Positions 7,056 through 59,998 of a stretch of 64,000 nucleotides of DNA are shown here, one piece after another. Where the stretch lies: positions 4,482 through 68,481 of the IMG/VR virus record IMGVR_UViG_3300033141_002294. One strand, 5' to 3'. The stretch is from a virus. The notes under the pieces are model-generated. The model made no database searches and was not told the DNA's origin. It worked only from the letters and a program-made list of their open reading frames with translations. Numbering within the stretch: position 1 is the stretch's first letter; the number at the start of each line of letters is the position of its first letter. Position numbers and translations under genes: made by a program.

Positions 7056-7258
7056 GTGTTACCCCCTTGTCGCATGTCGGCCCCAGGCCAGGAATCGGCT
7101 CAATCACAGGAGCCACACCGCCCATACTGGCACATGCCATGCCGCAACCGCATACCACTTCAATACCAACACTGCGCCCCATGCGATGCCAATTATAAGC
7201 AGCGCTTTTCCGGCTTCCATGTTTTTACCCCCTTTGGTGTGGTTACCCCGCATCATGA

Positions 7259-7528: not shown

Positions 7529-7549
7529 GGCTACCCCTCCCCAAGTGTG

Positions 7550-8374: not shown

Positions 8375-8682
8375 GGATTCACCCCCGACATTTCACGTAG
8401 TTCCTGCGCACTCCGCCCCACGGTGTTTCTACAGGCCGCCGTGCACGTGCTGACTCCAGTTATCTCAAGCACGTCCTGCCACCGGCAATTGCAGATGGCG
8501 GTTTTCGGAATGTCGCCTACACGGTTGGGGCATTTCGGGATATCCGGCACCGAGCACCGATGCCCAGGCCGCACACATCGGCAGGTGACTGTCTCGGGGT
8601 CCCACATTCTACAAGTGGCCGTTTCCAGGGTGCCGTCGGGCCGCTTGTGGGCCGTCTTGGGACAGTTCTTCAGTTGCGACAT
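8329..8682 (-). CDS. Cys-rich hypothetical protein
   Basis: Many Cys residues; AGGAG RBS; overlaps both neighbours. Confidence 0.4.
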   Translation of the reverse strand: MSQLKNCPKTAHKRPDGTLETATCRMWDPETVTCRCVRPGHRCSVPDIPKCPNRVGDIPKTAICNCRWQDVLEITGVSTCTAACRNTVGRSAQELREMSGVNPCASSCWRIANSEPT

Positions 8683-10765: not shown

Positions 10766-12060
10766 AGCTCGTCCGCCTGCTCCTTGATTTGAGGCAGGCC
10801 CATGCGCTGGAGGACTGCATTCGTGATTTCCTCGTTCGGGAACAGCACCGCCCCGGCACCGCTCAGGGCAGTAATCATCTTGGCGATCTCCTCAAGCGGC
10901 ATCTGCTCCAGGTCACCGTGTGTAATCTCCGGCATGGTCTCGGGTTGCATGCCGTTATAGGCCAGGAGCTTGGGCACGGCGTGGCGGTTTATCTGTGCCG
11001 CGATGTGGTCGAGGTAGGCGTTTGTGGCGGTGGCGAACAGGTTGGTCTTTGAGGATGCCAGAGCAAACGAGCCGACCTTCTCCATGCCCAAGAATAGGAA
11101 CTCGGCCAGGGCGGTCATGGCGGTCCGCTGCTCATACCGAGTGATGATGGCGTTGGTGTCGAACTGTCTGGTGCCTCCGGTGGAGAGGAGGCGGAGCTTG
11201 AACCCGGTTTTGATGACGTTGCCGGCGGAATCGGAGATTTCCTCACATGGGACGACCAGACCCTCACGCTCATCGCGCTTGATTTCGGCCATCGCTGTCT
11301 TGAACGCCTCATACTGGGCTTTCTCATCGGTGTTGGCCGAAGGCAGTGTAATATGGGGCGGCACCTCCAGCACGGGCAACCCAGCCAGATCACGCTCTAC
11401 GCCGATAGCCTCAATCTCCTGGATCCGCTTCGTGAAATACCACGGCCTGAATGCATTGCGCAGAATAGACCGACCCTCAGGATTGCCCAGCATCTCCTTG
11501 GTGCGGAAAAGCAACAGCTTTTCTATTGGAATGAGCACTTCCGGCCCACCCGTCGGGTCCTGCTGGTACATGCCCTTCAGTTCGTTGTTGTCGTCAAACT
11601 CCCAGCCGGTGACCGTCTCGGGCGACCGTATCTCTAGCTTGCGCCAGCCGATACGCCCGTCAGTGTACCGGGAGTTTCGGGTCGGGTCCTTGGACTCACC
11701 GGCCCGCTGCTTGTAGCACAGTTCAAACGGCGCGAACCCAAACGGCAGCATCGACCCGAATATCTCTCCGATGAACGACGGCCAGGTATGGGACATATCG
11801 TCCATACACGAGGCGACGAACTCAGCCGCCTCCACACTGCCCTGGTCCGCATCCTCACCTGCGGAAACCTCCCACTCGACGCCTCGGCAGAGCATCTCCG
11901 TAACGAGGATGATAGCGCCAATGATGGGATCGTTGTCCCGCATCTCCTTGTAAACCCGGATGCCATTCGTACCCTTCAGTGTGTTGTGCATCTCCTGGTC
12001 TATGATTCTGCCATAGCGGGGCAGGCCGGTTCTGCCATATACTCTATACTGCTGGGCCAT
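10762..12060 (-). CDS. portal protein (Mu gp29/DUF935-like)
   Basis: GNPEGRSILR, EAIGVERDLAGLP and GSFALA motifs; follows terminase. Confidence 0.9.
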   Translation of the reverse strand: MAQQYRVYGRTGLPRYGRIIDQEMHNTLKGTNGIRVYKEMRDNDPIIGAIILVTEMLCRGVEWEVSAGEDADQGSVEAAEFVASCMDDMSHTWPSFIGEIFGSMLPFGFAPFELCYKQRAGESKDPTRNSRYTDGRIGWRKLEIRSPETVTGWEFDDNNELKGMYQQDPTGGPEVLIPIEKLLLFRTKEMLGNPEGRSILRNAFRPWYFTKRIQEIEAIGVERDLAGLPVLEVPPHITLPSANTDEKAQYEAFKTAMAEIKRDEREGLVVPCEEISDSAGNVIKTGFKLRLLSTGGTRQFDTNAIITRYEQRTAMTALAEFLFLGMEKVGSFALASSKTNLFATATNAYLDHIAAQINRHAVPKLLAYNGMQPETMPEITHGDLEQMPLEEIAKMITALSGAGAVLFPNEEITNAVLQRMGLPQIKEQADEL

Positions 12061-12064: not shown

Positions 12065-13510
12065 TCACACCTTCCAGGGAGAGCGGCGCTTGCCCCATTC
12101 ATCCGGTCGCCATTCAGTCTTGCGGGCTTTACTCTGCTCCAGCCTGAGCAGTGCCTGACTCATGGCATCGACCTGGTCGTCCGTTGCGGCGTTGGGAAAA
12201 GCGGTGGCCTCACTCAAAAAATCATTAATCCAGGCAGCCCGTCTGGGCAGATACACATTGCCCGACTGTACATAGGGAGCTACTGCAGCAGCCCGCGCCT
12301 CTTTTCCGCCCTGTGGCTGAACCGGGACTAGTCCGGCTATCTGTCGCCGCAGAGTAGCGATGACCGCCGGACCGTTTGCCTGGTCCTCAACGAGTTTGAG
12401 GCGGGCCTTCGGCCAGCGGTTGCTCATCGCAACTACCGACAGGATGGTGGCGGGAAAATTCATGCGCTGGCGCACCTGATCCAGTAGGTAGAAGTCGGCG
12501 TCCCTGCGGCCCCAGGCCTGACCTACCACGTAGGAGCCCTCCTGCGTGTTCTTGAATGCCATGTCCCAGGATTGAACGACCTCATCCAGGTCAACCGGGG
12601 CATCGTCGTACCATTGCCACCAGTCGCGGTGGAAGATATTGCCCTCGGGTGGGGCGGGACGTTGCTGGTACAGTGCAGACCATACATAGGGTCCAACCGC
12701 TTGCTTGATGCGCTCCAGTTGGTCTGTATCGAATCGCTCAGGCCACAAAGGCTCTCCGGGCTCGCGACCCAATTGGTCGTTATCCTCCGCCAGAGCAGGG
12801 AGGGTGATTCGCGTCCACCTGTCGCCGCCCGCCTTCTCTTCCTCGATGAGCCGTCCTGCGAGGTCGTCCTCATGCCAGCGGGTCATGATGAGGATAATGG
12901 CCCCGCCGGGCTCCAGGCGCGTGTATAGTGTGGACTGGTACCAGTCCCATTGTTTGTCCCGGATAACCTGTGATTGGGCCTCTTCTTGGTTCTTCAGCGG
13001 GTCGTCTATAATGGCGATGTCTGCTCCGCGGCCCGTGATGGGACCGCCTACGCCGACGGCTACCATGCCGCCGTCATGTCCCTTTAGGTCCCACCTGTCT
13101 GCCGCTGAGGAGTCATCCGCTACATCAACACCGAAGAGGAGGGGACCAGTTTGCTCCAGCAGGTCGCGGGCCTTGCGTCCAAAGCCTCGGGCGAGATCGG
13201 AGCCATAGGACGCCAGGATAATCCGGTTGTCGGGAAAGTTCCCCAACGCCCAGGCGGGGAAGTATTTACTTGTAAACTCGCTCTTGCCGTGCCGGGGAGG
13301 CATCTGGATCATCAATCGCAGGATGCGTTTGGCGGCTACGTCGGCGAGGGCGTCACTCAGGCGTAGCAGGTGTCTCGCAGGTATCCATCTGCGGTTGCTC
13401 GCCAGCCATGCGTACCCCGCCGGTAGCCCCAGCAAGGCGCTCGAATAGCTGATTGGCAGTAGCTCGGGCGTCTGGGTTGTTGATGATTTCCTGCCGGATG
13501 TCATACTCAT
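12065..13510 (-). CDS. terL: terminase large subunit
   Basis: MPPRHGKS (Walker A), ITGRGAD, IIDDP, LYQQRP, SWDMA and DDQVDA motifs. The true start may lie downstream of 13510. Confidence 0.95.
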   Translation of the reverse strand: MSMTSGRKSSTTQTPELLPISYSSALLGLPAGYAWLASNRRWIPARHLLRLSDALADVAAKRILRLMIQMPPRHGKSEFTSKYFPAWALGNFPDNRIILASYGSDLARGFGRKARDLLEQTGPLLFGVDVADDSSAADRWDLKGHDGGMVAVGVGGPITGRGADIAIIDDPLKNQEEAQSQVIRDKQWDWYQSTLYTRLEPGGAIILIMTRWHEDDLAGRLIEEEKAGGDRWTRITLPALAEDNDQLGREPGEPLWPERFDTDQLERIKQAVGPYVWSALYQQRPAPPEGNIFHRDWWQWYDDAPVDLDEVVQSWDMAFKNTQEGSYVVGQAWGRRDADFYLLDQVRQRMNFPATILSVVAMSNRWPKARLKLVEDQANGPAVIATLRRQIAGLVPVQPQGGKEARAAAVAPYVQSGNVYLPRRAAWINDFLSEATAFPNAATDDQVDAMSQALLRLEQSKARKTEWRPDEWGKRRSPWKV

Positions 13511-14035: not shown

Positions 14036-14121
14036 TGGGCCGGGCGGGGTTTGCACCCGCATCTCCGGGCTCCTCGCCCGGTGCTCTCAGAGTCGCCTCC
14101 ACTAAGTTGAGCTACCGGCCC
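14036..14121 (-). tRNA. atypical tRNA-like gene (anticodon position AGG, expanded D-loop)
   Basis: Acceptor GGGCCGG/CCGGCCC, D stem GCTC/GAGC, anticodon stem CCGGG/CCCGG with loop CGAGGAG, T arm GCGGG-TGCAAAC-CCCGC. Confidence 0.65.
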
Positions 14122-14430: not shown

Positions 14431-14504
14431 TGGCTGGGGCGGCAGGACTCGAACCTACGCTAGCGGGTTCAAAACCCGCTGTCTTACCACTTGACTACGC
14501 CCCA
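14431..14504 (-). tRNA. tRNA-Gln(UUG)
   Basis: TGGGGCG acceptor stem, anticodon loop TTTTGAA, GGTTCGAGTCC T arm, encoded CCA. Confidence 0.92.
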
Positions 14505-15813: not shown

Positions 15814-16902
15814 CTACAGGATTTTCGACCATTTCTCCACCATCTCGGGGCTCAACCCCCGGCTGACTACCGGCACGTTGTTCTCCCAGTCATTTAACAG
15901 TATCTGCCTGCACTGGTGCCGATGCACCGCTTCATTCTCCGCCTGCCCTGCAAAGCGCTTCCTAAATCGCTCCACCTTGTCCGTCGGCGTAGTGTCTAGC
16001 AGATAGTCGCGGTATTCCCTCCAGGTGCCGAAATGGGGGGGGAGCTCGTCGGCCGAGTACACCTGCCTGTCGTCTGCGTATAGCGCCGCACAGTGGATGC
16101 CCTGCAGCCTCCGTAGCAACCGCTCGTAGGTCTCCGGCTCGAACTCCTGGAGGTTGGCGAGGCAGTAGAATGCCTTCTCATGAATGAGGTTCGACACCCG
16201 CATATCACTGATGTTGTGGCCTATTTTGGCGAACATCTGGTCGTAGACGGGGTTGTACTCTAGGTTGTGGTCGGCGATATACTTCCAGATGTCGGGGAAG
16301 CACCAGTCGTAAATAGGGTAGAACCTCCAAGCCTGGGGGTTCTTAGTCTTCGTGCTCCACCATATGCCCTTGTAGCCCGGGTTCCTGGTAATTGCGCGAA
16401 ACCGGTTGAGGCTCTCTTTCGACCTGATACCCACTAGCATAGCGGTAGGCTCCTCAAACTGCGTCTCCAGCCAGTCGAAGAATTTGTAGAATCGCCTCGG
16501 GTAGTCCACATCGAGGGAGTGGATCGCGATGTCGCTCTTCTCCCGCATCCATTCCTCTCCCTCTCCCCAGGCGTAGAGGAAATACTCGCGGTGTGACGTC
16601 GCGTTAGTCATGTAGATCGGCACCTGATACCACATGGGAATGACCCGGGGATGGCGCATCATGCCGTCTATCAGGCGCACGGTTGCAGCATATTCGGCCT
16701 CCTGGTCGAGGAAAAACACTTTCACCTTTCTGTCACGCCGCTCTGCCTCCTCAATGGCCAGGTGAAACAAGACCGTGCTGTCTTTACCCGACGACACACT
16801 GACGACGATGTTGTCAAACTCGTCGAAGACCCTGGCAACCCGCTGCCTCGCGGCCTCCAGGACGTCTATGTCTTTGTACTCTACCAGTGCTGCCTTAGCC
16901 AT
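15814..16902 (-). CDS. IbrA/YbdN-like PAPS-reductase (PP-loop) family protein
   Basis: DVLEAARQRV, VSVSSGKDS PP-loop, GIRSKESLNR, YPIYDW..DIW and MRVS motifs. Confidence 0.9.
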   Translation of the reverse strand: MAKAALVEYKDIDVLEAARQRVARVFDEFDNIVVSVSSGKDSTVLFHLAIEEAERRDRKVKVFFLDQEAEYAATVRLIDGMMRHPRVIPMWYQVPIYMTNATSHREYFLYAWGEGEEWMREKSDIAIHSLDVDYPRRFYKFFDWLETQFEEPTAMLVGIRSKESLNRFRAITRNPGYKGIWWSTKTKNPQAWRFYPIYDWCFPDIWKYIADHNLEYNPVYDQMFAKIGHNISDMRVSNLIHEKAFYCLANLQEFEPETYERLLRRLQGIHCAALYADDRQVYSADELPPHFGTWREYRDYLLDTTPTDKVERFRKRFAGQAENEAVHRHQCRQILLNDWENNVPVVSRGLSPEMVEKWSKIL

Positions 16903-17674
16903 AGCGCAACCCCTCCGCAATGGCATTCGTCAGGTCCATCAGGCCCACCAGTTCGCTCACCAGATGCTCGTCGACCTTCAGGTCCGTGCGTACTACCTCA
17001 TGCTGCTCCCGGTCGAACAGTCTTGCTGGCGTGGGGACCCTGCGCTCAGGGCAGACATCTCTGGCATACCTCGCCAGCTTGGTGATTACCCCCCTGATGG
17101 TTGTCTCCGTCTCAAACAGGTATGTCTTCAGGTCCTCATACTCCAGCTTCTGCGCGGCCGTCGTCGGCACAACCCGGATCGTGGGTCTGCCGAAGTACTC
17201 TGCGTAGTCGCAAGTCACTGTGCCCTTCGCCCATCTCAGTATCTCCTCAGCCGAGAACGGGTTGAAGTCCGAAACATCCTCTTTCCACTGTTTCCAGCGG
17301 GTCTCTGCTATGTAGCTGTAGCTGTAGTCCAGGTACTGTGCGCCGACGAACCCGAAGTGGAACCACGTCCGCCAGGGTTCGCTGACGAACAGCGTCCGGT
17401 CTATCGACATCTTGCGGATGTCGCGCATACGATTGTAGACTATCTCCCATACGTGCTTCGTGCGGCTGGAGGGGGTTATGAGCCTGTTCAGCCCGACCAT
17501 CACGAGGTTGTCGAACCCCTTGATGCATCCCTGCGGGTCGTCCTCAAACCTCTCCCACTCGATTACCCGACTGCCCGGTATGTTTGGCGTAGGGTATGCC
17601 TTGTGCACCACGCAGACCGTTTTGCCGTCGAGTGGGGGGGAGAGGAACCCAATATCCTTACTCAGATAGATCAT
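16895..17674 (-). CDS. hypothetical protein, possibly a degenerate SNF2 N-terminal domain
   Basis: Coupled to both neighbours; EPWRTWFHFGFV..LDYSYSY and YEDLK..ITKL segments loosely recall SNF2_N, but Walker motifs are absent. Confidence 0.5.
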   Translation of the reverse strand: MIYLSKDIGFLSPPLDGKTVCVVHKAYPTPNIPGSRVIEWERFEDDPQGCIKGFDNLVMVGLNRLITPSSRTKHVWEIVYNRMRDIRKMSIDRTLFVSEPWRTWFHFGFVGAQYLDYSYSYIAETRWKQWKEDVSDFNPFSAEEILRWAKGTVTCDYAEYFGRPTIRVVPTTAAQKLEYEDLKTYLFETETTIRGVITKLARYARDVCPERRVPTPARLFDREQHEVVRTDLKVDEHLVSELVGLMDLTNAIAEGLRYG

Positions 17675-24283: not shown

Positions 24284-25345
24284 TCATGTCACCCCCGCGA
24301 ATATCCGTTGTTGTTGCGTCTCCCGCTCTATCCGTCGCCGGGCCATCTGCACATACTCTGGATTAATCTCAATGCCAATACTATCGCGCCCGTACTGCTC
24401 GGCTACCAGCAAGGTTGTCCCCGCCCCACAGAAGGGGTCCAGGACAACGCACCTTCCCGAACCGTCGTTGTCGGGACAGATGCAGGTCGGTGCCCACTGG
24501 TTGGTCGGAGCGGTGGTCGGCCGCCAGTCGGTGCTGTCTGTCTTGGTCTTGGTATTGTGCGGCACATGGGCCGGTTCGCGCCCATTGCGGTGCCCAGTGC
24601 GCTCGACGACCCGTGCCCACGGCGCGCCGCAGATGGGACACGCACGGGGCGACGTCCCGGCGAGGATGCAACGGCGGGGCAGCTCGCGGGGAAATGTGGC
24701 GAAATGGGCCTCGGGGAATGGTTCGGTAGGGATAATCCAGACCGAACGGGCGTTGCGGCCAGCCGGGTGTAGGTGGTTGCTGCCCTCGTGGAGATTGCCT
24801 GAACCAACCCTGGGGACACCTACCGGGAGTCCCCGATACTTGGTCCGCCCTGTCTGGTGACCGCCCTGTGGCCAACGCACAGACGACTCCGGTTGGTGGG
24901 GTTCGCGAATAGCATCCGGGTCGTAGTAGTATTGCGGTTGCTGGCTGAGCAAGAAGATATACTCATGCGCTCCGCTGGGCCTGTCTTTTGTGCTCTCGGG
25001 TAAGGCGTTGTTTTTGTACCAGACGATGTCCCTGCGCCAATACCAGCCATCGTCCTGCAGGGCCAGGGCCACACGCGACGGGATGCCTACCAACCGTTTC
25101 CGCCGGTAGGTATCCCCGAGGTTGACCCACGCCGTACCATCCGGCCGCAGCACCCGCCGCACCTCCCGGAACACTTCAACCATGCGGGATACGTACTCCT
25201 GTGGCGTTTCCTCCAGCCCAATCTGTCCCGCCACTCCGTAGTCCCGTAGCCACCAGTAGGGCGGGGAGGTAACCACGCAATGGACCGATGCATCCTCCAG
25301 TTGGGCCAGTCCGTCCATGACGTCGGCGGTGATTATGCGGTACAT
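24284..25345 (-). CDS. N4-cytosine/N6-adenine DNA methyltransferase
   Basis: VTSPPY, HFATFP, VLDPFCGAGTT and GIEINPEY motifs. Confidence 0.92.
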   Translation of the reverse strand: MYRIITADVMDGLAQLEDASVHCVVTSPPYWWLRDYGVAGQIGLEETPQEYVSRMVEVFREVRRVLRPDGTAWVNLGDTYRRKRLVGIPSRVALALQDDGWYWRRDIVWYKNNALPESTKDRPSGAHEYIFLLSQQPQYYYDPDAIREPHQPESSVRWPQGGHQTGRTKYRGLPVGVPRVGSGNLHEGSNHLHPAGRNARSVWIIPTEPFPEAHFATFPRELPRRCILAGTSPRACPICGAPWARVVERTGHRNGREPAHVPHNTKTKTDSTDWRPTTAPTNQWAPTCICPDNDGSGRCVVLDPFCGAGTTLLVAEQYGRDSIGIEINPEYVQMARRRIERETQQQRIFAGVT

Positions 25346-43236: not shown

Positions 43237-43662
43237 CTAATACAACCCCCTCAGCGCCTCGGCCAGTCGCCGTCCCTTGTCACCGTCGCCGATGACTACG
43301 ACAACTGGACCTGTGCGCTGGGGTTGATTGGATTGTTCGTCCTCCATCCGGGCCAAACGGATCAGTTCCACGCTCGCCTGTGCCCGCGCCATATCGGGGT
43401 TGCGAGACACACGATACGCTTCGTCGTACAGCCTCCGGTAGACCGGAGCACCTCCGACGATTTGGTATGCCTCCAGCACTCGGGGTGAAAACAGCCGCCG
43501 ATCCGGCGTCGGGGCCAAAAAGGGCAACTGCCCTGCCTGACAGCGTTTGTGGACTGAGGATGCCGTAATGCCGAACATCCGCCCCACCTCAGCGGCTGTC
43601 AGCAAACCTTGTCCGGGTCGTGCATCCCCTGGTCGATCATCTTGTCGAAGTGCCTCTCCCAT
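43237..43662 (-). CDS. excisionase-like HTH protein
   Basis: LLTAAEVGRMFGIT..G.LP...P..RRLF; start uncertain. Confidence 0.6.
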   Translation of the reverse strand: MGEALRQDDRPGDARPGQGLLTAAEVGRMFGITASSVHKRCQAGQLPFLAPTPDRRLFSPRVLEAYQIVGGAPVYRRLYDEAYRVSRNPDMARAQASVELIRLARMEDEQSNQPQRTGPVVVVIGDGDKGRRLAEALRGLY

Positions 43663-44168
43663 CCGAGTTTGACCCCCTCTTCGAGTCCGTACTCACGGGC
43701 CATATGCACGAGGCAGTTGATGGCGGTGTAGACATCCCACACCTGTTCCATCAACTGTGAAACCTCCTCCATATCCAGCTCGCCCTTGTATATCTCATGG
43801 CAGAGTTTTGTGAGGACCGCCTGCACCTGCTCTGCCGATTCCTCCGCCTCCTCCACATAGCACGACCCGACCATCGCTGGGTGTCCATCGATCTGATTAG
43901 GCACCCAGCCGGTCGGGTACGGAGGGGGAGAGTCTTGGGGCGAGAGAACAAAATCGTGCTCGCTGCCGTCTTGCCCACTCATCCGAATGATAAGGGGCGA
44001 TTGCAAGGCACAGGCTATATCCATGAGTACGTTGAGTGACGGCGGTTTATGCCCGTTGGCTACTGCCCATATATGCTGTGACGACACTCCCGCCTTCCGG
44101 GCCAGCGCCCGCTGGGTAAGTTTGAGACGGGCCAGTGCGTCGGGGATGCCGACAATTTGTATATCCAT
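43599..44168 (-). CDS. Cro-like XRE HTH regulator
   Basis: LTQRALARKAGVSSQHIWAVANGHKPPSL; divergent from the repressor gene. Confidence 0.8.
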   Translation of the reverse strand: MDIQIVGIPDALARLKLTQRALARKAGVSSQHIWAVANGHKPPSLNVLMDIACALQSPLIIRMSGQDGSEHDFVLSPQDSPPPYPTGWVPNQIDGHPAMVGSCYVEEAEESAEQVQAVLTKLCHEIYKGELDMEEVSQLMEQVWDVYTAINCLVHMAREYGLEEGVKLGWERHFDKMIDQGMHDPDKVC

Positions 44169-44184
44169 TTTTCCCCCTCCCTGT

Positions 44185-44360
44185 GTACATCATACAACAT
44201 GGTGTTATATAAGTGCAAGGCAAGGCGGGGGTATTATGAGTCCATACGGGAGAGATGCGCCGACTTGTTATGCTATAATGCAACCAAACGGTGTATTAGC
44301 CCGATATTTAACGCCATACCGTCGTATTGACCAATACAACAAGCCGGTGTATGGTTGGCG
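44185..44360. promoter_or_regulatory. lysis/lysogeny switch with divergent promoters and operators
   Basis: Plus-strand extended -10 TGCTATAAT (44271-44279); minus-strand TTGCAC-18-TATGAT; two 19-bp boxes ATGCAACCAAACGGTGTAT (44278) and ATACAACAAGCCGGTGTAT (44334). Confidence 0.65.
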
Positions 44361-44426
44361 TAGGGGATTATGTGTAGAGGCTGCTGCTGCCTAGACACAT
44401 AGGGGGTGTAGGCAACGAGTACCGAG

Positions 44427-44834
44427 TTGCGCGAGATAGGACGACGGCTGGAGCAGATGCGCAAAGACAAGGGCCTCAGCCGACGTGAGGTCGCAGAGCA
44501 TTTGGGCACTACGATTCAGAGCATTTACAACTGGGAGCGCCATCGCGGCGGGAGAATGCCGCCCTATGAGGCTCTATTCGCGATGGTAGAACTGTACCAA
44601 CGGCACATCGGCGAGGTCTTTGGGATACCCGATCCCAAGCGGGTGTATCTGCGGGATATCACTCATCAGTTGCCCGATGACTTGGCTGAGTGGGTCTGTC
44701 AGGAGGGCAGTGAAGAGTTCCTGCTAATGGCCCGAGAGATAGATGAAAACAACATCGATCCCGACTTCATTCGCGGCATAATCAATATCATGCGGGCACA
44801 GAAACGTCATCAAAACGAGGAAGGGGACACATGA
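44427..44834 (+). CDS. CI-like repressor (XRE HTH)
   Basis: GLSRREVAEHLGTTIQSIYNWE; first gene of the integrase-oriented operon. Confidence 0.85.
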   Translation: MREIGRRLEQMRKDKGLSRREVAEHLGTTIQSIYNWERHRGGRMPPYEALFAMVELYQRHIGEVFGIPDPKRVYLRDITHQLPDDLAEWVCQEGSEEFLLMAREIDENNIDPDFIRGIINIMRAQKRHQNEEGDT

Positions 44835-45215
44835 ATGCCCATCGACAGAATACATCAGCCGCACATTCAGACACGTGCCGAACATGCATTTGAAGAAGTG
44901 GCGCTCCATAGCGGCACAACGACAGATTTAGGCACGGGATCGGCCGTCAATCTGTCCGGCTACGTATGTGCCTGGCTGGTCGTCGGTGTCTCTGATATTG
45001 CCTCCAACTCACGATTGACGCTTGAAATGCAATACCTCGCTGGCAGTAAGTGGGTTCGTATGCCCGATACTAAGGTTGAATACTCCGCAGCCACGACATC
45101 TCCACAGGCTATAGCAATAGACCTCCCACCGTCGGCGCAGGCCCGCATAGCATGGACGCTATCAGGTGACGCGCCCTCCGCGACGTGGTCAGCATCACTG
45201 CATCTGTCATCATAG
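44835..45215 (+). CDS. beta-rich protein paralogous to tail-module protein 52490..52885
   Basis: Aligns by eye with 52490..52885; abuts the repressor stop codon. Confidence 0.7.
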   Translation: MPIDRIHQPHIQTRAEHAFEEVALHSGTTTDLGTGSAVNLSGYVCAWLVVGVSDIASNSRLTLEMQYLAGSKWVRMPDTKVEYSAATTSPQAIAIDLPPSAQARIAWTLSGDAPSATWSASLHLSS

Positions 45216-45453
45216 GGCTGCAAACGAGGTGGGAATTATGGCAGCCCAGACAGCAATCCAAGAGCCTCCTGTCGTTTTAAAGATTGTACCGACAACCCAC
45301 GTTATCGTCTATTGTGCGATATCCAGCAACATCGCGCTCATCGGTCGGCCGTCAGAGTGACCGAGGAGTGATCAACCGTTTGCGTAGTCGGGTCGATCCG
45401 GGACCGGCTGCAACTGTCTCTGGGCGCTATGACAATAATGGGGGGTTGGTATA

Positions 45454-45882
45454 ATGTGGCGGTTAGGCATCATCGGACTCGTTGCCGTCCTGCTGGCCGG
45501 TTGCAGTGCAGCGACGCCGGAGGGCATAATCGGCAGGTCGACAAACGGTGGGTCCGGTGCAACCAGCATCACGATGTCTGAGGGCACGTTGACGATCCAC
45601 TATAATTTCATGCCGGTTCGGGCGACAACCGACTCCGAACTCCGCAAGGAGATAGGCCGGAAGTGGGCCGATAAGATCAAGCGGCTGTTTGACACCAGTC
45701 CCAGTCTGCGTACGGTGGTAGTCTGGGTGACGCTACCCTACGACGATGTATATGGAAAGCGTACCTGGAAACAGTACCTCAGATGGTCCATCAGTCGCAG
45801 CAAATATGAGCATATACAATGGGACCATTTCACCGACGACGACCTGCTGAGGATCGTAGACACCATCAAACCGCTGCAGTAA
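45454..45882 (+). CDS. lipoprotein, candidate superinfection-exclusion factor
   Basis: Signal peptide with LAGC lipobox; lysogeny-module position. Confidence 0.7.
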   Translation: MWRLGIIGLVAVLLAGCSAATPEGIIGRSTNGGSGATSITMSEGTLTIHYNFMPVRATTDSELRKEIGRKWADKIKRLFDTSPSLRTVVVWVTLPYDDVYGKRTWKQYLRWSISRSKYEHIQWDHFTDDDLLRIVDTIKPLQ

Positions 45883-45987
45883 GGGGGTATGGGGATGAGG
45901 GGTTTGCAGGCCGCAGGCTGGATGCTCGCGGGGATTTTGCTGGCGCTGGTGCTGATAGCAGTCTACCGTCTGGCGGCGGGCTAGACA

Positions 45988-47130
45988 ATGGGGTCTATCC
46001 GCAAGCGGGGTAAGGGCACCTGGACAATCATCTACAGCCTCGGTCGGGACCCGCAGACGGGCAAATACCGGCAGAAATGGGAGACAATCAGGGGCACGAA
46101 GGCACAAGCAAAGGCCGTCCTGGCAGAGCGTGAGGCTGCTGTTGCCAGGGGTCAGATGCAAGACACATCGCGGATGACCGTCGGGCAGTTTCTGACGCGA
46201 TGGTATGACTCGCATGTAACCCGAATCCGGCCCGCAACCGCCACAAGCTATGAGATACAAATTCGTTGCCACATCACTCCCGCTATCGGCAGCATTCTCC
46301 TGTCCAAGCTCACACCCTTGGACCTCCAGGAGCTCTACGCCGCCAAACTACAGGGTGGCCGCAGCGACGGCAAGCCGGGCGGCCTATCTCCGCAGTCGGT
46401 GAGATATATCCACGCCGTGATTCGCGAGGCGTTGTCCGATGCCGTGCGGTGGGGGATGGTCAGCCGCAATGTGGCCGACCTGATCGACCCACCTCGGCCC
46501 GATAAACAACGTCCGACTGCCTGGACAGTCGAGCAGGCAACCGTGTTCCTCCAGGCAACCCGCAACGATGCAGTTTACCCACTCTACCTGCTGGCCCTGA
46601 TGACCGGGATGCGGCGCGGCGAACTGCTGGCTCTAGAGTGGCAGGATATCGATTGGGAGCGGAGGACCGTGAGCGTCCAGCGTAGCGTGCAAAGGGTCGG
46701 CCGTCGGTTGATTGTCGGTGTGCCGAAAACCGAGCATAGCGTAAGGCAGGTCGCCCTACCCGACTCCTGTATCCAGGCCCTGCGGCATCATCGTACCCAT
46801 CAGTTGCAGATACGGCTAATAATGGGCGGGCGCTACCTCGACTGCCATCTGGTGTTCCCCGGTCCGGGGGGTGAGCATATGGAGCCCAGGGCGCTGACAC
46901 GACGCTATGAACGTGCAATCAAGCGCCTGCCGGTCCCGTACATCCCCTTTCATGGACTCCGCCACACCCACGCTACAACCCTGCTCAAACAGGGCATTCA
47001 CCCCAAGGTGGTAGCGGAGAGACTGGGGCATTCGCAGATTCGGACCACGATGGACACTTACAGCCATGTACTGCCCGGTATGCAGGAGGAGGCAGCCCGC
47101 GCAGTGGAGAGGGTGTTGGGCGAGTTTTAG
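45988..47130 (+). CDS. int: tyrosine integrase
   Basis: Arm-binding N-terminus, TGMRRGE, HGLRHTHAT, RLGH and YSHV motifs. Confidence 0.97.
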   Translation: MGSIRKRGKGTWTIIYSLGRDPQTGKYRQKWETIRGTKAQAKAVLAEREAAVARGQMQDTSRMTVGQFLTRWYDSHVTRIRPATATSYEIQIRCHITPAIGSILLSKLTPLDLQELYAAKLQGGRSDGKPGGLSPQSVRYIHAVIREALSDAVRWGMVSRNVADLIDPPRPDKQRPTAWTVEQATVFLQATRNDAVYPLYLLALMTGMRRGELLALEWQDIDWERRTVSVQRSVQRVGRRLIVGVPKTEHSVRQVALPDSCIQALRHHRTHQLQIRLIMGGRYLDCHLVFPGPGGEHMEPRALTRRYERAIKRLPVPYIPFHGLRHTHATTLLKQGIHPKVVAERLGHSQIRTTMDTYSHVLPGMQEEAARAVERVLGEF

Positions 47131-47422
47131 CAAATTCTTAGCAGGTTGCCTCGGCCCGTCCCCAGTCCGATGGAATTCGTCCCGAGCCATCGGACGCCGA
47201 AACCCCCGCAGTGCGGGGGTTTCCGGTTTTAACCTCCGTGGTCGGGCCGGCCGGACTCGAACCGGCGGCCTCTTGAACCCCATTTATGCGTCATGTCGCG
47301 CGCCCTGTGGCGGCCCGGCGCACGAATGCAGTTCCCACGGGGGTTTCGAGCGTCCTTCCCGGTTTGATTCGGGTCCACAGACGCCCATCGGCGCGGCAGG
47401 AGTTTTAGCAAATTATTAGCAG
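47122..47422. mobile_element. attP: tRNA-Pro(GGG) 3'-half core (47239-47284, minus) flanked by 23-bp arm repeats
   Basis: Minus strand AATGGGGTTCAAGAGGCCGCCGGTTCGAGTCCGGCCGGCCCGACCA; GAGTTTTAGCAAATT(C/A)TTAGCAG at 47122 and 47400; hairpin at about 47196-47228. Confidence 0.88.
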
Positions 47423-48237: not shown

Positions 48238-49152
48238 TCAGGCGGGGTTGGCGGCCTCTACCCCCATCAGTCGCCGGAATTCTTCCAGCGGCCTGAAGCC
48301 GCCTCCCGGCAGCCAGACCTGCGTATCAGGCCCATAGGCCGCCAGCCGCCGCCGTGCCTGGCGCACATACGCCAGGTCATCGTAGCGGGCTTGGCCCCGG
48401 CGGGCAATGGCTGCGGTCCACGCCGCCAGGGCCTCATCCCAGGCCCTGATTTTGGCGGCCCGCTCCTGCTGGGCCGCAGCATCCGTTCTGCTGGCGGCCT
48501 CCAGGCAGGTAGCACACAGATACCACTGCCCAACCTGGGGGCCGGAGTCGGCTCCTGTGACTTCATACTCGCCGCAGCAGGCACACCAGTTGTACCGGGA
48601 CCTGCGCCGCAGGACGTCGTGCTCGTAGGCTACCGCCCGCACGGCGTCCAACTTGCTATCGTCCACCGGCAGGCGGGGCCCGCCGTCACACCCCCTAATC
48701 ACAATGACCCCATCCACCACCCACCCCACAGGCAGGCGAGTGATGGTGACCGGGCCGAGCTCGCTCACGGTCCGTAGCACTTCCCCATCGAGGTTTTGGG
48801 CCTCGGCCGGGACCGTGCAGCTAAGTGTGCCCCCAACCGGCAACGCCCGCAGGCGCTGCTCCCAGGCGGCTACCGCCGTCTTGAGCGGATGCGGAGGAGC
48901 CTCCTCCACGACGGCGTCGGCCAACCAGTCCCGCAGTTCTGCGGCGGCGGTGCAGGCCGCCCTTTCGTCGGCCTCTATGCCGCCGATCATCCCACAGGAG
49001 ATCGGCAACTCATCCCACTCCCGGAGGGCATCCCAGAGTTCGGCGCCCTCCTGCCAGGTGAGGTACCCCCGGCGGTACTGTTTCCGGGCCCACTGCAGGG
49101 CCCGCTGCAGGTCGCGGTCGATGATGCGGATTCGGGCTGCTCCGGTTATCAT
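48238..49152 (-). CDS. hypothetical protein sharing its C-terminal domain with 49733..50212
   Basis: 304 aa; CxCC..CxxC, then AQQERAAKIRAWDEALAAWTAAI..LAYVRQARRRL. Confidence 0.65.
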   Translation of the reverse strand: MITGAARIRIIDRDLQRALQWARKQYRRGYLTWQEGAELWDALREWDELPISCGMIGGIEADERAACTAAAELRDWLADAVVEEAPPHPLKTAVAAWEQRLRALPVGGTLSCTVPAEAQNLDGEVLRTVSELGPVTITRLPVGWVVDGVIVIRGCDGGPRLPVDDSKLDAVRAVAYEHDVLRRRSRYNWCACCGEYEVTGADSGPQVGQWYLCATCLEAASRTDAAAQQERAAKIRAWDEALAAWTAAIARRGQARYDDLAYVRQARRRLAAYGPDTQVWLPGGGFRPLEEFRRLMGVEAANPA

Positions 49153-49732: not shown

Positions 49733-50212
49733 CTACCCAATCTCCAGCAGCCGCCGTATCTCCTCCAATCCAACCATCTGCCCCGCAGGGAGCTGGACCT
49801 GGGTGTCGGGTCCCTCCTCCTCCAGCCGCCGCCGCGCCTGGCGCACATACGCCAGGGAGGTGGTCCGCTGGCTGGGGGTAAGCTCCTGGCCCTCAATGGC
49901 CGCCGTCCATGCCGCCAGGGTCTCATCCCAAGCCGCGATCTTCTCGGCTCGCTCCTGCTGTGCCGGGGAATCCTCGCCCAGCCCCAGGGCCGCGACCAGA
50001 CTCTCGATGCCGCCGAGGGTCCGCAGGGCGTGGCACCATTGGTCGGCGGTGCCCTTCGTCCGCACCTCTTGCCAGGTGCCGTCCGCCTGGCGGTCCAGGT
50101 AGCCGAGGCCCCGCCAGGGCTGCCGCCGCGTGCCGTGTTCGATCTCGATATAAATGCGACACCTGCCGTGTTTCTGCCAGGGGTTCGCCCGGTAGCCATT
50201 CCTCTGAGCCAT
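49733..50212 (-). CDS. hypothetical protein, first gene of moron-like operon
   Basis: GAGGAGGGG RBS just after a consensus promoter. Confidence 0.65.
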   Translation of the reverse strand: MAQRNGYRANPWQKHGRCRIYIEIEHGTRRQPWRGLGYLDRQADGTWQEVRTKGTADQWCHALRTLGGIESLVAALGLGEDSPAQQERAEKIAAWDETLAAWTAAIEGQELTPSQRTTSLAYVRQARRRLEEEGPDTQVQLPAGQMVGLEEIRRLLEIG

Positions 50213-50334: not shown

Positions 50335-50583
50335 TCAGCCACTAATGGTGTGTTTCCCGGCGCTCCAGAGTCCCGCCGCGCTCAGGCCGACGGCCAGGCC
50401 GACAATCAGCGCCCTGAACCACTCAGCATCGGCCAGGTAGGCGTGACTCAGAGACAGCACCACACCAAACCCGACGGCCAGCAACCCGGCGAACCGGGAG
50501 GGAAACCCGAAACCCTTGACCATCTGCACGATTGCAACGATGATGGCGACGGCACCGACTCCGCTGATGAGCTCAAAGTCCAT
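50335..50583 (-). CDS. holin
   Basis: 82 aa with 2-3 TM segments and GLAVGLSAAGLWS motif; follows endolysin. Confidence 0.8.
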   Translation of the reverse strand: MDFELISGVGAVAIIVAIVQMVKGFGFPSRFAGLLAVGFGVVLSLSHAYLADAEWFRALIVGLAVGLSAAGLWSAGKHTISG

Positions 50584-51313
50584 CAACCGCTCCTCCCTTC
50601 ATACCCGACAACAGCGCTAGGCAGTTGTGGGCGGACTCTTGGATATCTCTCAACTCACTCTTAACCGCTCCGATGTCCGGTCCCGGCTCCGTGCAGTCGA
50701 GCAACCGATACTGGCGCATGATCGCCAGGACCTTGTCCACATAGGTAATATCCGTTGCGTACCTGCCGCGCCAGACCCAGTAGACATAGGCCACAGGACA
50801 GGTGGGCCACTCGCGGGCGGTCGTGTATCTGCTAGCATCGACAATCAGGGCGGCATAATCGCGTAGGCTGTCGGCAGTAGACTCGTAGGCGCGAAACTTG
50901 GCCTGCACCCGGACCCTCTTGCCATCTCTATACTCCCACGTCTGGCGCTCCACGTATTCGCCATCGCCTGTCCACTTGATGCCGAACAGGTTGTTGCCCG
51001 GTGCAGACTCGCCGAAATTACTCTCTAGACACGCCTGGGCCAGGACGGCAGCGGCAGGCAGGCCATGTGCCCGCTCGATATGCTCCACATGAGGGCGTAG
51101 AGCCGCAATGAACAAAATCCGCTTGAGCGTGCCCAATGTCTCCGGTCCGGCAATACCGTCAATCTGCAGGGCATAGTACCGCTGAAACGCCGTGACGGCC
51201 TGCGCCGTCATCTGGTCGTAGTTGCCATCGGGCGTCCCGTCCAACCAGCCCAGATATGTGAGTTCTCGTTGCAGTCGGTCGACCTCCAGGCCCGAATCAC
51301 CTAGCCGCAGCAT
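50573..51313 (-). CDS. endolysin: PG-binding domain plus GH73 glucosaminidase
   Basis: LRLGDSG..AVTAFQ..DGIAGPET, then AQACLES, NNLFGIK and YATD. Confidence 0.92.
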   Translation of the reverse strand: MLRLGDSGLEVDRLQRELTYLGWLDGTPDGNYDQMTAQAVTAFQRYYALQIDGIAGPETLGTLKRILFIAALRPHVEHIERAHGLPAAAVLAQACLESNFGESAPGNNLFGIKWTGDGEYVERQTWEYRDGKRVRVQAKFRAYESTADSLRDYAALIVDASRYTTAREWPTCPVAYVYWVWRGRYATDITYVDKVLAIMRQYRLLDCTEPGPDIGAVKSELRDIQESAHNCLALLSGMKGGAVDGL

Positions 51314-51629: not shown

Positions 51630-52493
51630 TCAGTCAATCACAATCGCGGTGGGCACAGGGCGTTCCCGGCCGTCGCTGGGATGATTGATTACGTGCCCTT
51701 GCCAGACCAGCGTTGACGATCCACCCCCGTCGAGAGACATTGCATTGTTGCACCAGCCTGCTTGTCCGTGCAGGTCTGGTGTATTGAGCGCCATTCCCGT
51801 CACGTCACGCAACTGCGTCAGAGTTAGTCCCGCACTACCGTGCCGCCGACCGTCGGCGACGACGAACCACAGCATGGCGTCCGACCACCCGATGGCCGAC
51901 CGAGGCTGACGCCTCCGCAAATTCCAGCAGGTGCGCCCGATGTCCGCTTTCCCGTCGACAATCAACCGCGTATAGCTGGCGACGCAGTTCTCCACGCCGG
52001 ATTTCGCCAACAGACTGGCCCGTCCAGGGTGGCGCAGTATCCGTAGGTTGTCCACGTCGAGGATCGCCCACTCTCCGGCCCGGTTGTCTGCCAAATCATT
52101 GACGACAGTTCCTTCATATATAGTAGCGCCTATGGGAAGGCCGGAGCGCAGGTCGAAGAACCCGCCGTTGATGGCCGCTATGTGGCCCCGTGCGTGTCTG
52201 CTGACTGGCTGAGGACGACCTAGCACCATCCGCTGAGTGTAGCGCTTGCGGTCAAATCCAAGAGCATACACAGTGTTGTTGCAGATGCGCCACTCTCTTG
52301 CTACCACGCCTGTTGCCTCATACAGAGACGCACAGGTTTTCGGCCCCACAATCCCATCTACCGATAACCCCGCCTGCTGCTGGAACGCTACCACCGCCCG
52401 CCCCGTTTTTGGCCCATAGATGCCGTCAATCGGACCGGGGTCGTGCCCTGCGGCCCGGAGCCACAGTTGCAGCAGCTTGTCCCCGGCGCTCAT
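51630..52493 (-). CDS. PG-binding domain plus phosphodiester glycosidase (NAGPA-like)
   Basis: GPIDGIYGPKT..VDGIVGPKT; AAINGGFF, PRSAIG, DGR and LDGGGSS motifs. Confidence 0.88.
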   Translation of the reverse strand: MSAGDKLLQLWLRAAGHDPGPIDGIYGPKTGRAVVAFQQQAGLSVDGIVGPKTCASLYEATGVVAREWRICNNTVYALGFDRKRYTQRMVLGRPQPVSRHARGHIAAINGGFFDLRSGLPIGATIYEGTVVNDLADNRAGEWAILDVDNLRILRHPGRASLLAKSGVENCVASYTRLIVDGKADIGRTCWNLRRRQPRSAIGWSDAMLWFVVADGRRHGSAGLTLTQLRDVTGMALNTPDLHGQAGWCNNAMSLDGGGSSTLVWQGHVINHPSDGRERPVPTAIVID

Positions 52494-52885
52494 GATTTTA
52501 CTTGCAGGTTCGCGCTGAACGTAACCGACGGCTGATCGCCGCCTATAGTCCAGACAAGACGGACCTTCTGGCAAATCAACTCCGGCGTCACGTAAACCGT
52601 CTGGCCGATTTCGGTAATCTGCGCGATGGTGAGTCCGGGCACGGCGAACCACTTGCCCGACAGTCCGTTGTAACCCTGCAGTTCCAGGTCCATCGTCGGG
52701 GCCGCGCCGGACATGTCGGTCACATCGACCACCAGCCAGCCGTGCAGATAGCCGCCGATGTCGAAGGCGGAAGTTTCTCCATCCTGTGTGACAGTCCCGG
52801 AATCGTGGAGTACATTGTCATTCGGAGACCTGGCAAGGAGCACCTGACAGTCACTGATAGTCTTCAAGTTCGTGGTCAACTCCAA
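52490..52885 (-). CDS. small beta-rich virion (tail-tip) protein
   Basis: Last gene of the tail module; alternating beta-strand pattern. Confidence 0.55.
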   Translation of the reverse strand: MELTTNLKTISDCQVLLARSPNDNVLHDSGTVTQDGETSAFDIGGYLHGWLVVDVTDMSGAAPTMDLELQGYNGLSGKWFAVPGLTIAQITEIGQTVYVTPELICQKVRLVWTIGGDQPSVTFSANLQVKS

Positions 52886-57622: not shown

Positions 57623-59998
57623 CTACCTTGTGATGTCATACCGCCGGGACCGGCGCAGGGCGGTCATGATCCGGTCCTCGACCGCTCTTCCTATGCGCTC
57701 CAGGTCCATGTCATTGCTGACCTGCGGATTGTTGATGTTGACCGTCACGTTGGTCGTGCCGCCCATGTCCCCGAGTTTGGCAAGAGGGACTACGAGTTCC
57801 GGTCCGGCTTCTCCGACCATCGCGGGGGTAGGGGAGGTAACCAGCCCGCCGTTGGCCAGACCGGGAGGGGCCACGCCGTAGCGGCGCTCGAACCACGCCC
57901 GTTGCCACTCGGGGGTTGCGGCGTGGTAGTCTCTTTGTACTTGTTGCCACGCGGCGGTCAATTGTTCGCGGCTGAGCATTGATCCGGCCCATTCGCGGGC
58001 CATGCCCATCCCGATGGGCAACCCACCCTGCATGGCGGCCAGCGCCCGCTGTAGGGCTCCGACGTAGCGGCTTTCAGCCGTCTCGGCGGTCTTCTCCATC
58101 TGTTCCTGCTGGGCCAGCAGGGCCTCGGTCGTCGCCCGGATTTCGGCCCCCAATTCGGCCTCCTGCAACTGAGTGTTCAGGAGTTCGAGATTCAGTTCTT
58201 GGGCTTCCATGCTGGTTGCCCCGGTCATGGCTATCTGCTGATCAAGGGCCGATTGCAGGACGGCGATTTTATCCCGCACTCCCTCAGCGACGGTGCCCAG
58301 GAGCTCGTTCCTGCGGGTTAGAATGTCGGTCTCATCGGCTACGCCGCGCATGGTGGCAAGCTCCGTCTGCATCGTCAGCGTCAGTGCCTGGAGACGGCTA
58401 TCGGCCAGCATGACTGCCTGCTCCATTGCGGTCAGGCCGTCGGTCGCTCCTCCAGTACCGCCTGCCGCATCGGCCACCGCCTGAATCTGCCGTGCCTGGG
58501 CCTTTGTTGTTTCCACAAACCGTCTCATGGCCCGGTCTTCCTCAAACATCCCAGCCGCAGATTCCGTAACTGGCAGAGCCGCTTCGCGGGCCGCCCTTTG
58601 CTGAATCGCCGCCAGGTCAGGGATGCCTCCAGGTGCAAACATGCTAGGGGCGATTGTCTCCACCGCGCCGGTCTCCTGCATCCTCTTGGCGAGGGATACG
58701 CCAGCACCGATTGATGCACCAGCTAGGCCGATGGGGCCGAGCATGCCCATTTTGGCGTACATGCCCGCGAGTGCCCTGGCTACAATCGGTGCGTTCGTGA
58801 TGATATTGCCCATCAGGATAAGGACCGGGCCTATTGCGGCCGCCAATAGACCGAAACCGATTATCGCCTTCTGGATGTCTGGGTCCAACTCTGCAAATGC
58901 CTTGGCATTGTCACGGATACCCTCTGCGAGGTCGACGACATAGGGCAGAAGAGTCTCACCGATTTCGATTGACGTCGCCGCTAGCTGCGCTTTCAATTCG
59001 GCGAACGTTTGGGCAGCCGTGCTCTGGACGGCCTCGAATCCCTCATCGGTCATGCCCAGACTGTTGTTGATGGACTCCGAAATCTGTACAAACGTCTCGC
59101 CCTGACTGGCTGCCGTACCTAGCACACCGGCGAGGGCACGGACATTAGGAATTACCTGCGCCAACATCTCCTCATTACCGGCAAATGCTCCGACCAGGTC
59201 GACCAGGGCTTGAGCTAGACCGCGCTCCTGGATGGACGCCCGCAGGTCATCTATGGTCATGCCGACCGTGGCCAATGCCTCACGTGACATTTTCGTGGGT
59301 TTGAGGACTAGACTCAATGTGCCGCGCAGAGCAGTAACGGCCTCCTCCGCCGAGACGCCGATGCGGGTGAATGTAGCAACAAACGCGCCCAACTGCTCAA
59401 ATGAGACGCCCGCCTGTGCCGCTATGCCCATCACACGACCGAGGCTGCCTGCAAGATCGGCGGCTTCCAGGTTACCCTCTCGAACCGTTGCGACCAGAAT
59501 GTCCGTTGCTCTAGCGGCAGACAGATTGGCGGGACCATATGCCTGCATCGCGCCGGTAACGGCCCTGGCTATCACTCGTGTTTCACCCAGGCCGATTGCT
59601 GATGCCTTCGCGGCAGCTTCAACGATTTTCAGCGACTCAGCCCCACGCACACCGGCAGAAGTGACTACAAACAGCGCTTCAGACAGTTCCTGTGGCGTTT
59701 TGCCGAGAGCAGGACCCATCGCCTTGATGCTATCCCGCCATTTATCCACCTGTTCGGCCGCTATGCCGACGAGGGTGTGGACCTTCATCATACTGGCTTC
59801 GAAATCCGTCGCCATTTTGATGCTCGCCCCGGCTATGAGGGCGATAGGGGCAGTGATATACGTGCTCATGGTCCGGCCCGTGGCTTTCATCTGCGATCCC
59901 AGCTTGCCGAGGTTTCTCCCGGCCCTGTCCATCGCCATGCTGAAATCTTTCGTGTCAGCAGTGATTTTGTACCCGAGTACGCCCAACAGAGTTGCCAT
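57623..59998 (-). CDS. tail tape measure protein (TP901 family)
   Basis: 791 aa, Ala/Gly-rich helical; C-terminal LANGGLVTSPT.AMVGEAGPELVVPL. Confidence 0.93.
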   Translation of the reverse strand: MATLLGVLGYKITADTKDFSMAMDRAGRNLGKLGSQMKATGRTMSTYITAPIALIAGASIKMATDFEASMMKVHTLVGIAAEQVDKWRDSIKAMGPALGKTPQELSEALFVVTSAGVRGAESLKIVEAAAKASAIGLGETRVIARAVTGAMQAYGPANLSAARATDILVATVREGNLEAADLAGSLGRVMGIAAQAGVSFEQLGAFVATFTRIGVSAEEAVTALRGTLSLVLKPTKMSREALATVGMTIDDLRASIQERGLAQALVDLVGAFAGNEEMLAQVIPNVRALAGVLGTAASQGETFVQISESINNSLGMTDEGFEAVQSTAAQTFAELKAQLAATSIEIGETLLPYVVDLAEGIRDNAKAFAELDPDIQKAIIGFGLLAAAIGPVLILMGNIITNAPIVARALAGMYAKMGMLGPIGLAGASIGAGVSLAKRMQETGAVETIAPSMFAPGGIPDLAAIQQRAAREAALPVTESAAGMFEEDRAMRRFVETTKAQARQIQAVADAAGGTGGATDGLTAMEQAVMLADSRLQALTLTMQTELATMRGVADETDILTRRNELLGTVAEGVRDKIAVLQSALDQQIAMTGATSMEAQELNLELLNTQLQEAELGAEIRATTEALLAQQEQMEKTAETAESRYVGALQRALAAMQGGLPIGMGMAREWAGSMLSREQLTAAWQQVQRDYHAATPEWQRAWFERRYGVAPPGLANGGLVTSPTPAMVGEAGPELVVPLAKLGDMGGTTNVTVNINNPQVSNDMDLERIGRAVEDRIMTALRRSRRYDITR

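Follow-up and report, generated by a model that had tools for sequence, protein, structure and literature searches.

Organization of the Phage Genome and Its Lysogeny Operon

The analyzed window of 64,000 nucleotides comprises bases 4482–68481 of a 68,481-bp IMG/VR virus record (IMGVR_UViG_3300033141_002294) with direct terminal repeats at its ends, and represents a temperate phage, possibly of a high-GC Firmicute, whose genome is in the free-phage layout. The forward direction of the phage corresponds to the minus strand of the window. In this direction, the Cro-like gene is followed by the early and replication genes and then by the terminase, whereas the tail genes are reached after the wrap through the record ends (Table 1). 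After the tape measure gene, the minus strand encodes a 708-aa protein, a tail protein of 786 aa that carries an F5/8-type-C domain and for which phmmer found no match in the PDB, an 80-aa gene product, and a small jelly-roll protein, hereafter the late copy. A diverged paralog of the latter, hereafter the lysogeny copy, is located in the repressor operon on the plus strand. A related 32.7-kb contig, the DNA of which is 92–97% identical, carries both copies in the same arrangement.

Table 1. Positions of the phage genes and sites considered in this study, numbered from the first base of the window.
Feature	Position	Strand	Remarks
Major capsid protein (MCP)	1099..2100		
GT28-like glycosyltransferase	4122..5333	-	
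NeuB-family nonulosonic-acid synthase	5597..6664	-	
Formyltransferase	7550..8374	-	
CMP-sugar cytidylyltransferase	8670..9413	-	
Portal	10762..12060	-	Followed by head genes
Large terminase	12065..13510	-	
Cro-like HTH protein	43599..44168	-	Heads the divergent early operon; Pfam HTH_3 (1.4e-7)
Three operator-like repeats, ATACAAC-N-GGTGTAT	44192..44352	.	Divergent cI/cro intergenic region
cI-like repressor, XRE-type HTH, 135 aa	44427..44834	+	Pfam HTH_31 (2.7e-10), HTH_3 (4.5e-8)
Lysogeny copy, 126-aa diverged jelly-roll paralog	44835..45215	+	Second cistron of the repressor operon
Possible 40-aa ORF	45238..45360	+	SD-like GAGGTGG; GC3 0.56; tentatively coding
Lipoprotein, lipobox LAGC	45454..45882	+	N-terminus MWRLGIIGLVAVLLAGCS; PHROG 8263, unknown function (2.5e-5)
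Possible 31-aa single-pass membrane peptide	45889..45984	+	From the ORF list
Tyrosine integrase (int)	45988..47130	+	Last gene of the lysogeny operon; Pfam Phage_integrase (2.6e-24), PHROG 1 (1.3e-84)
83-aa gene	50335..50586	-	Three hydrophobic stretches; no family match
PG_binding_1 + NAGPA phosphodiester glycosidase	51630..52493	-	Pfam NAGPA (1.4e-29), PG_binding_1 (3.1e-17)
Late copy, 129–131-aa jelly-roll	52490..52885	-	Last gene before the lysis cassette
Tape measure protein (TMP)	57623..59998	-	

The start codon of the lysogeny copy directly abuts the stop codon of cI (TGAATG), and an SD-like sequence, GAGGAAGGGG, is located about 8 nt upstream of it. Both the abutment to cI on the plus strand and the placement in the repressor operon, as given in the preliminary description of this locus, were thus borne out. 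The operator-like repeats belong to two families, D1 and D2, and lie at 44192, 44277, and 44333; a promoter-like site is present on the plus strand of the same intergenic region (44327..44355). From cI to int, this strand showed no terminator-like site. Being the second gene of the repressor operon, the lysogeny copy is probably made in lysogens, as judged from gene structure. A look-up of sequencing runs for 43500..47200 returned neither a run nor an RNA data set.

The cI-like repressor also matched PHROG families of transcriptional regulators and repressors, and the S24 peptidase domain was absent from it in the Pfam search. Since induction of this repressor, devoid of the autocleavage domain, needs another factor, the lysogeny copy could be an accessory that binds or modulates cI or senses an induction signal. 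The translational coupling to cI suggests co-production in stoichiometric amounts, and ImmA-type anti-repressors hold the same slot in other Gram-positive elements (ImmR-ImmA-int). However, no regulatory domain was found in the lysogeny copy, the family to which it belongs is otherwise associated with virions, and a jackhmmer search detected no homolog of the cI, Cro-like, or integrase proteins of the window among the ORFs of 85 loci of family members (see below). We consider an accessory role unlikely.

The other genes of the operon were also considered. The 40-aa ORF downstream of the lysogeny copy shares its low GC3 and is identical in the related contig, and the two may form one inserted cassette. 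The lipoprotein gave a single insignificant match against the PDB (phmmer, E 0.52). Both the lipoprotein and the 31-aa membrane peptide are candidates for Ltp/Sie-type exclusion proteins.

Several further features of the genome were recorded. In the lysis cassette, the NAGPA glycosidase is accompanied by a separate endolysin with PG_binding_1 and glucosaminidase domains (50573..51313). A membrane/coiled-coil gene of the cassette was read from its own sequence as putatively XhlA-like, and the 83-aa gene was read as a putative holin from its hydrophobic stretches. A second pair of paralogs (48238..49152 and 49733..50212, both on the minus strand) is encoded in the region that extends from the lysis cassette to the integrase end. 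Over their 80 C-terminal residues, the two share 63% identity (E 7e-24), and neither of them has a family match. The segment 48247..49731 is the sole part of this region without a blastn match to the related contig, which has 1392 bases there instead.

Inside the head module, a sugar-nucleotide block (4122..9413, minus strand) is located between a Mu-F-like gene and the gene of an XkdF-type protease, which this phage also encodes. The block points to glycosylation directed by the phage, with virion proteins as possible targets. In a locus of one family member (L017), a glycosyltransferase gene lies directly 5′ of the jelly-roll gene. A 126-aa ORF (2172..2552, minus strand) occupies the interval between the MCP gene and a 293-aa gene without a family match (2552..3433), a position that corresponds to that of gpD in lambda. 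It did not match the profile of the jelly-roll family and may be the head-module decoration protein of this phage. The minus strand also carries genes for tRNA-Ala(AGC) and tRNA-Gln(TTG) (14036..14121 and 14431..14504, respectively), as well as a PAPS-reductase-like gene (15814..16926) and a DNA methyltransferase gene (24284..25345).

Relationship Between the Lysogeny Copy and the Late Copy

A BLASTP comparison of the two copies gave 55.8 bits, with 37 of 115 positions identical (32%), 50% positives, and an E value of 7e-16, and tblastn within the phage's own record recovered the paralog match at E 5.5e-14. When the 68,481-bp record was searched with a profile of 48 family members, the late copy (E 3.5e-42) and the lysogeny copy (E 6.2e-26) were detected, and nothing beyond these two genes was matched in the whole record. 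The BLASTP, tblastn, and profile values place the similarity of the two copies far beyond chance; consequently, the paralogy with 52490..52885 that had first been noticed from the sequence alone was confirmed. The late copy had also been described as the last tail gene. No other ORF separates it from the lysis cassette, but the word "tail" in this label reflects its position only. Its stop codon overlaps the start of the NAGPA glycosidase gene (ATGA), which couples the two genes translationally. Translation of the late copy probably begins at the third codon, TTG in this phage and GTG in the relative.

Neither copy had a direct match in Pfam, PHROG, or PADLOC. The word-indexed homolog search returned only the queries themselves and near-identical proteins, and tblastn against GenBank phages gave nothing for either copy or for the relative P0006. 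Scans for the loci of the closest relatives, with P0004 and cI in viral contigs and with the family alignment A4 in metagenome contigs, yielded no informative locus. A hetero-dimer model of the late and lysogeny copies, from a run made without controls, lent no support to a pairing, with a score of 0.10 and the mark at 0.32.

A Family of Virion-Associated Jelly-Roll Proteins

The exhaustive profile search identified 468 representative proteins at E ≤ 1e-3. Most of them are 105–135 aa long; in some, the domain is located at the end of a longer protein (200–1,500 aa). A C-terminal motif of the W-T-I-G-G-T-x-P-S-F-T-F type was present in 63 of the 151 proteins that were fetched. The family corresponds to PHROG 5707/427 and to the C-terminal half of PHROG 9522. 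Among the 48 aligned members, matches were obtained to PHROG 9522 ("major tail protein") for 38, to PHROG 5707 for 22, and to PHROG 427 for 21, while three members weakly matched the Pfam Bbp16 model (PF21190; best E 6.6e-4). A 357-aa relative, P0143, scored 42 bits against PF21190, with the cut-off at 27.1. PHROG 9522 consists of a tail-tube domain (positions 1–133) followed by the family domain (134–241), and this architecture was seen in 238-aa proteins of two loci, L078 and L066. Two consecutive major-tail-protein genes occur in L078 (7515..8664), as well as in L066 and the L084-L092 groups; in L078, the first product (238 aa) has the C-terminal jelly-roll and the second (135 aa) consists of nothing but the tube domain.

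The genomic context was sampled in 85 loci of relatives (46 clusters at 80% identity), and proximity to the capsid gene was scored by means of homologs of four PHROG-verified major capsid proteins. In 34 of the 85 loci (15 of the 46 clusters), a homolog of the MCP was encoded on the same strand at a distance of no more than 750 bp, and in 13 loci (7 clusters), it was further away. In the other 38 loci (24 clusters), the four seed proteins detected no MCP homolog; because such a search finds only relatives of the seeds, the count of MCP-adjacent loci is an undercount. Adjacency to a PHROG-verified MCP was observed, for example, in L042, L069, and L040. In a prophage of Paenibacillus gyeongsangnamensis, the gene of a relative 38% identical to the late copy is flanked by those of a head-tail adaptor and of a protein that occupies the MCP position. 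The latter was called MCP by gene order only, and it had no significant BLASTP match to the MCP of the window and no phmmer match in the PDB. In Arthrobacter phage Ottawa, the domain is part of a 767-aa protein (gene 102) encoded two genes past the MCP gene, and in Arthrobacter phage Sonali, it is carried by the 857-aa gp26, which is annotated as a "virion structural protein." A language-model search gave DUF6385 (0.91), Bbp16 (0.88), and XepA (PF27453; 0.87) as the nearest named clusters, which serve as leads only.

Our conclusion is that these proteins share a promiscuous decoration domain of the virion surface, which stands alone beside the capsid gene or is fused to tail-tube or fibre-like proteins, and that the label of a tail-tip component is not supported. 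The domain seems to be related to Bbp16 and, in its structure, to XepA/YomS. The analysis thereby gives a context-based annotation to a large phage family, hitherto unnamed, with at least 468 representatives.

The structural character of the family raises the possibility that the lysogeny copy is still a virion protein, namely a second decoration or adhesin subunit that a different promoter would express during the lytic cycle and that would be incorporated into particles. Sonali offers a parallel, in that the gene of gp26, a structural protein bearing this domain, has the lysis genes on one side and the integrase on the other. Nevertheless, the lysogeny copy is located on the strand opposite to the late operon and is coupled to cI, and it has lost both the hallmark loop of the family and the N-terminal arm of its sister (see below). 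We consider such a role quite unlikely.

Predicted Fold and Closest Structures

The AF2 models of both copies are confident eight-strand beta-sandwiches, with a pLDDT of 89.8 for the late copy and of 84.8 for the lysogeny copy, the latter built from four sequences only. The top fold matches of both models were YomS/XepA (6i56, 6i5o; Z 11.1 to 11.9). Comparison with the cement protein of phage BPP-1, Bbp16 (3j4u_H), gave a Z of 10.0 and an rmsd of 2.7 over 104 aligned residues for the lysogeny copy, and a Z of 10.6 and an rmsd of 2.8 over 106 aligned residues, 22% of them identical, for the late copy. However, unrelated jelly-rolls (GOLD domains, IBDV VP2) were within about one Z unit of the best fold matches. 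At the sequence level, the sole PDB match of the family profile was the BPP-1 cement protein (positions 14–111), and at E 0.0048 this match was marginal.

The preliminary description had proposed that the lysogeny copy poisons tail-tip assembly or acts as an alternative receptor-binding subunit. The location of the late copy at the distal end of the tail module, past the TMP and the two large proteins that follow it, agrees with this proposal, and the best PDB match in Foldseek was a tail-tip domain of lambda gpJ (E 3.1e-4, TM 0.50). The gpJ match is weak, though, and the relatives are found mostly in head modules or on tail-tube proteins rather than at tail tips; as shown above, the family is a general virion-surface jelly-roll, adjacent to the MCP in 34 of 85 loci and fused to the tube domain in PHROG 9522. 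The best sequence link, weak as it is, leads to a capsid cement protein. Assignment as a tail-tip subunit on the strength of gpJ was accordingly outweighed by the family context and the Bbp16 link, and the tail-tip or receptor-binding version of the proposal is highly improbable.

The fold also resembles carbohydrate-binding modules (Z 8 to 10), a few relatives touch F5/8-type-C or DUF6385 models, and the phage has sugar-synthesis genes of its own. These observations would fit a host-directed factor of lysogenic conversion, i.e., a jelly-roll acting like a lectin on a glycan or wall precursor of the host and, for example, modifying the receptor. Against this, the likeness to carbohydrate-binding modules is at the level of a common fold, and neither a signal peptide, a lipobox, a hydrophobic stretch, nor an anchor was found at the N-terminus of the lysogeny copy (MPIDRIHQPHIQTRAEHAF), the GRAVY of which is -0.02. 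By its sequence, the lysogeny copy is best explained as a putative cytoplasmic protein, and a host-directed lectin is very unlikely.

Divergence of the Lysogeny Copy

In a tree of 34 sequences, the two copies were sisters (UFboot/SH-aLRT 88/88), with branch lengths of 2.51 for the lysogeny copy and 0.65 for the late copy, an approximately four-fold difference. The long branch of the lysogeny copy makes the sister placement less certain. Among the 39 columns conserved in the family, 21 were kept in the lysogeny copy and 32 in the late copy. The S-G-T-x-P-T-L-D loop between strands 2 and 3, the G of which is present in 98% of the family members, is gone from the lysogeny copy and replaced by A-S-N-S-R-L-T. 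In addition, the Q-V-L-L-x-R-A N-terminal arm common to the late copy and its closest relatives is absent. The C-terminal motif is largely retained (W-T-L-S-G-D-A-P-S-A-T-W), as are the core residues W73, R104, W107, T108, G111, P114, S115, and T117. The capsid contacts of the BPP-1 cement protein are described as involving the termini together with a loop in the vicinity of strands B to D (PMC3863775), and the loop lost in the lysogeny copy may be the equivalent of that capsid-contact loop. With the most conserved loop and the N-terminal arm both lost, a change of function is at least as good an explanation as faithful mimicry.

The composition of the gene is atypical as well. The GC3 of the lysogeny copy was 0.54, compared with a mean of 0.68 (sd 0.07) for the 76 ORFs of at least 100 aa, and with 0.65, 0.71, and 0.71 for its operon neighbors cI, the lipoprotein gene, and int, respectively. 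The GC content of the three codon positions is flat (0.57/0.54/0.54) and resembles that of the spurious antisense ORFs of the genome. Thus, the low GC3 is moron-like, yet it is also like that of spurious antisense ORFs. Between this phage and the related contig, the lysogeny copy differs by a single nucleotide, a non-synonymous change (A23V); because of this single difference, dN/dS is uninformative on purifying selection.

These data bear on the possibility of a neutral or decaying duplicate, according to which the moron hotspot past cI received a copy of a virion gene that has been drifting there without a selected function. The roughly four times longer branch, the loss of near-invariant residues, a GC3 similar to that of non-coding or antisense ORFs, the non-synonymous nature of the only substitution, and the lack of a matching defence or Pfam family all speak for such a duplicate. 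On the other hand, all 126 codons from the ATG to the stop can be read in frame, the stop/start junction is exact, an SD-like site is present, and neither frameshifts nor premature stops occur even though the duplication is old (32% identity). The core residues named above have been kept, and the fold was predicted with confidence from as few as four sequences. We therefore regard a functionless, drifting duplicate as rather doubtful.

Rarity of the Arrangement and Possible Function

A family match was found in 4 of the 401 genomes of the order to which the Paenibacillus belongs, and each of them had a single copy. Four further records were searched in full (the Paenibacillus genome and three viral contigs), and two matches occurred only in one viral contig, where they were adjacent, one in a 1,521-aa protein and the other in the next ORF. 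Hence, in the sample of 85 loci and 401 genomes, a family copy in the repressor operon was seen solely in this phage and its near-twin. A narrow full-text search of the literature returned no description of a decoration-protein paralog in a lysogeny operon.

Taken together, the position, the divergence, and the virion association of the family lead us to propose, tentatively and as the likeliest of the readings considered, albeit at less than even odds, that the lysogeny copy is a moron expressed in lysogeny, exapted from a virion-surface protein, and possibly interfering with related phages. The gene of the phage's own small virion-surface protein, of the decoration or cement type, was duplicated, and the duplicate became the second cistron of the cI operon, where it is coupled to cI in translation. 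Such a placement would lead to co-production with the repressor in lysogens. The duplicate has diverged about four times faster than its late sister while its jelly-roll core was kept. The paralogy, the fold, the association of the family with virions, the operon position, the faster divergence, and the unusual composition are thus shown by the data, whereas lysogenic expression, a binding partner, and an effect on other phages are inferred. In a lysogen infected by a related phage, the protein might bind the virion component that is the normal partner of the family, on the capsid or the tail surface, and thereby disturb or mark assembly of the superinfecting phage. The resident phage could be spared in that transcription of the cI operon would stop at induction, or in that its own partner would have co-evolved with the protein.

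Some of the results count against interference. No known effector was recognized in the lysogeny copy, and it had no PADLOC match (2023 library). Furthermore, no gene was identified by which the resident phage would escape its own inhibitor. The loss of the loop could mean that the ancestral binding site is gone, which counts against mimicry. A more specific form of the proposal holds that the decoration protein has been turned into an intracellular factor, co-expressed with the repressor, that recognizes the capsids or tails of related superinfecting phages as an assembly-spoiling decoy or as a sensor, with the late sister as the self-compatible structural version; we consider this form fairly unlikely.

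If the lysogeny copy does act on incoming phages, it would demonstrate a simple route to prophage defence, in which a virion-surface protein is duplicated, moved under the repressor promoter, and allowed to diverge. A defence protein would then have been born by duplication of a structural gene, and the structural copy and the diverged copy would constitute a ready-made pair for mapping what such a factor recognizes.

Comparison With Known Systems

Like both copies, Bbp16 (3j4u_H; PF21190) is an eight-strand jelly-roll of about 120–140 aa, and its gene adjoins the MCP gene, as do those of many family relatives. In contrast, both copies of this phage are located outside the head module and neither of them matches the Pfam PF21190 model; moreover, the S-G-T-x-P-T motif of the family is absent from Bbp16.

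The C-terminal domain of XepA and YomS, from PBSX and SPbeta of Bacillus subtilis, are small beta-sandwich proteins similar to both copies. Their genes are reported to sit between the tail genes and the lysis cassette (PMC6834076), and the map of SPbeta shows this position for the YomS-type gene. The slot is shared by the late copy only. The XkdF-type protease and the putatively XhlA-like gene of this phage are further points of likeness. No profile similarity to XepA/YomS was found, and hhalign of the family profile against YomS gave a probability of 0.5% (E 0.11). XepA is described as exported, absent from particles, and cytotoxic (PMC6834076).

The interval that separates the integrase gene from that of the repressor is described as a site of prophage exclusion genes (PMC7693887, PMC3952083). 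The lysogeny copy shares this genomic slot and the presumed expression state with the Sie/Ltp-type exclusion genes of Gram-positive temperate phages. However, the Sie/Ltp proteins described there are membrane-anchored or lipoproteins and act at DNA entry (PMC7693887, PMC3952083), whereas the lysogeny copy has no anchor, and the neighboring lipoprotein (45454..45882) fits this type better. In the account of the lactococcal phage Dub35A, cloned genes for cytoplasmic proteins from the same interval conferred no phage resistance (PMC7693887).

A functional parallel is provided by Tab and Tai, and our proposal would be a structural-paralog version of these assembly-interference defences. That prophage proteins can block virion assembly of superinfecting phages, the premise of the preliminary description, is established: both proteins are described as being made from the prophage in lysogeny, the invader replicates, but assembly of its virions is blocked (PMC10884400, PMC11364771). 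Self-immunity in these systems is attributed to a counter-protein of the lytic cycle (PMC10884400, PMC11364771). In their cited descriptions, Tab and Tai are not presented as paralogs of structural proteins (PMC10884400, PMC11364771), unlike the lysogeny copy. Tab and Tai serve as a working analogy for the lysogeny copy, the presumed lysogenic expression of which we infer from the structure of the operon.
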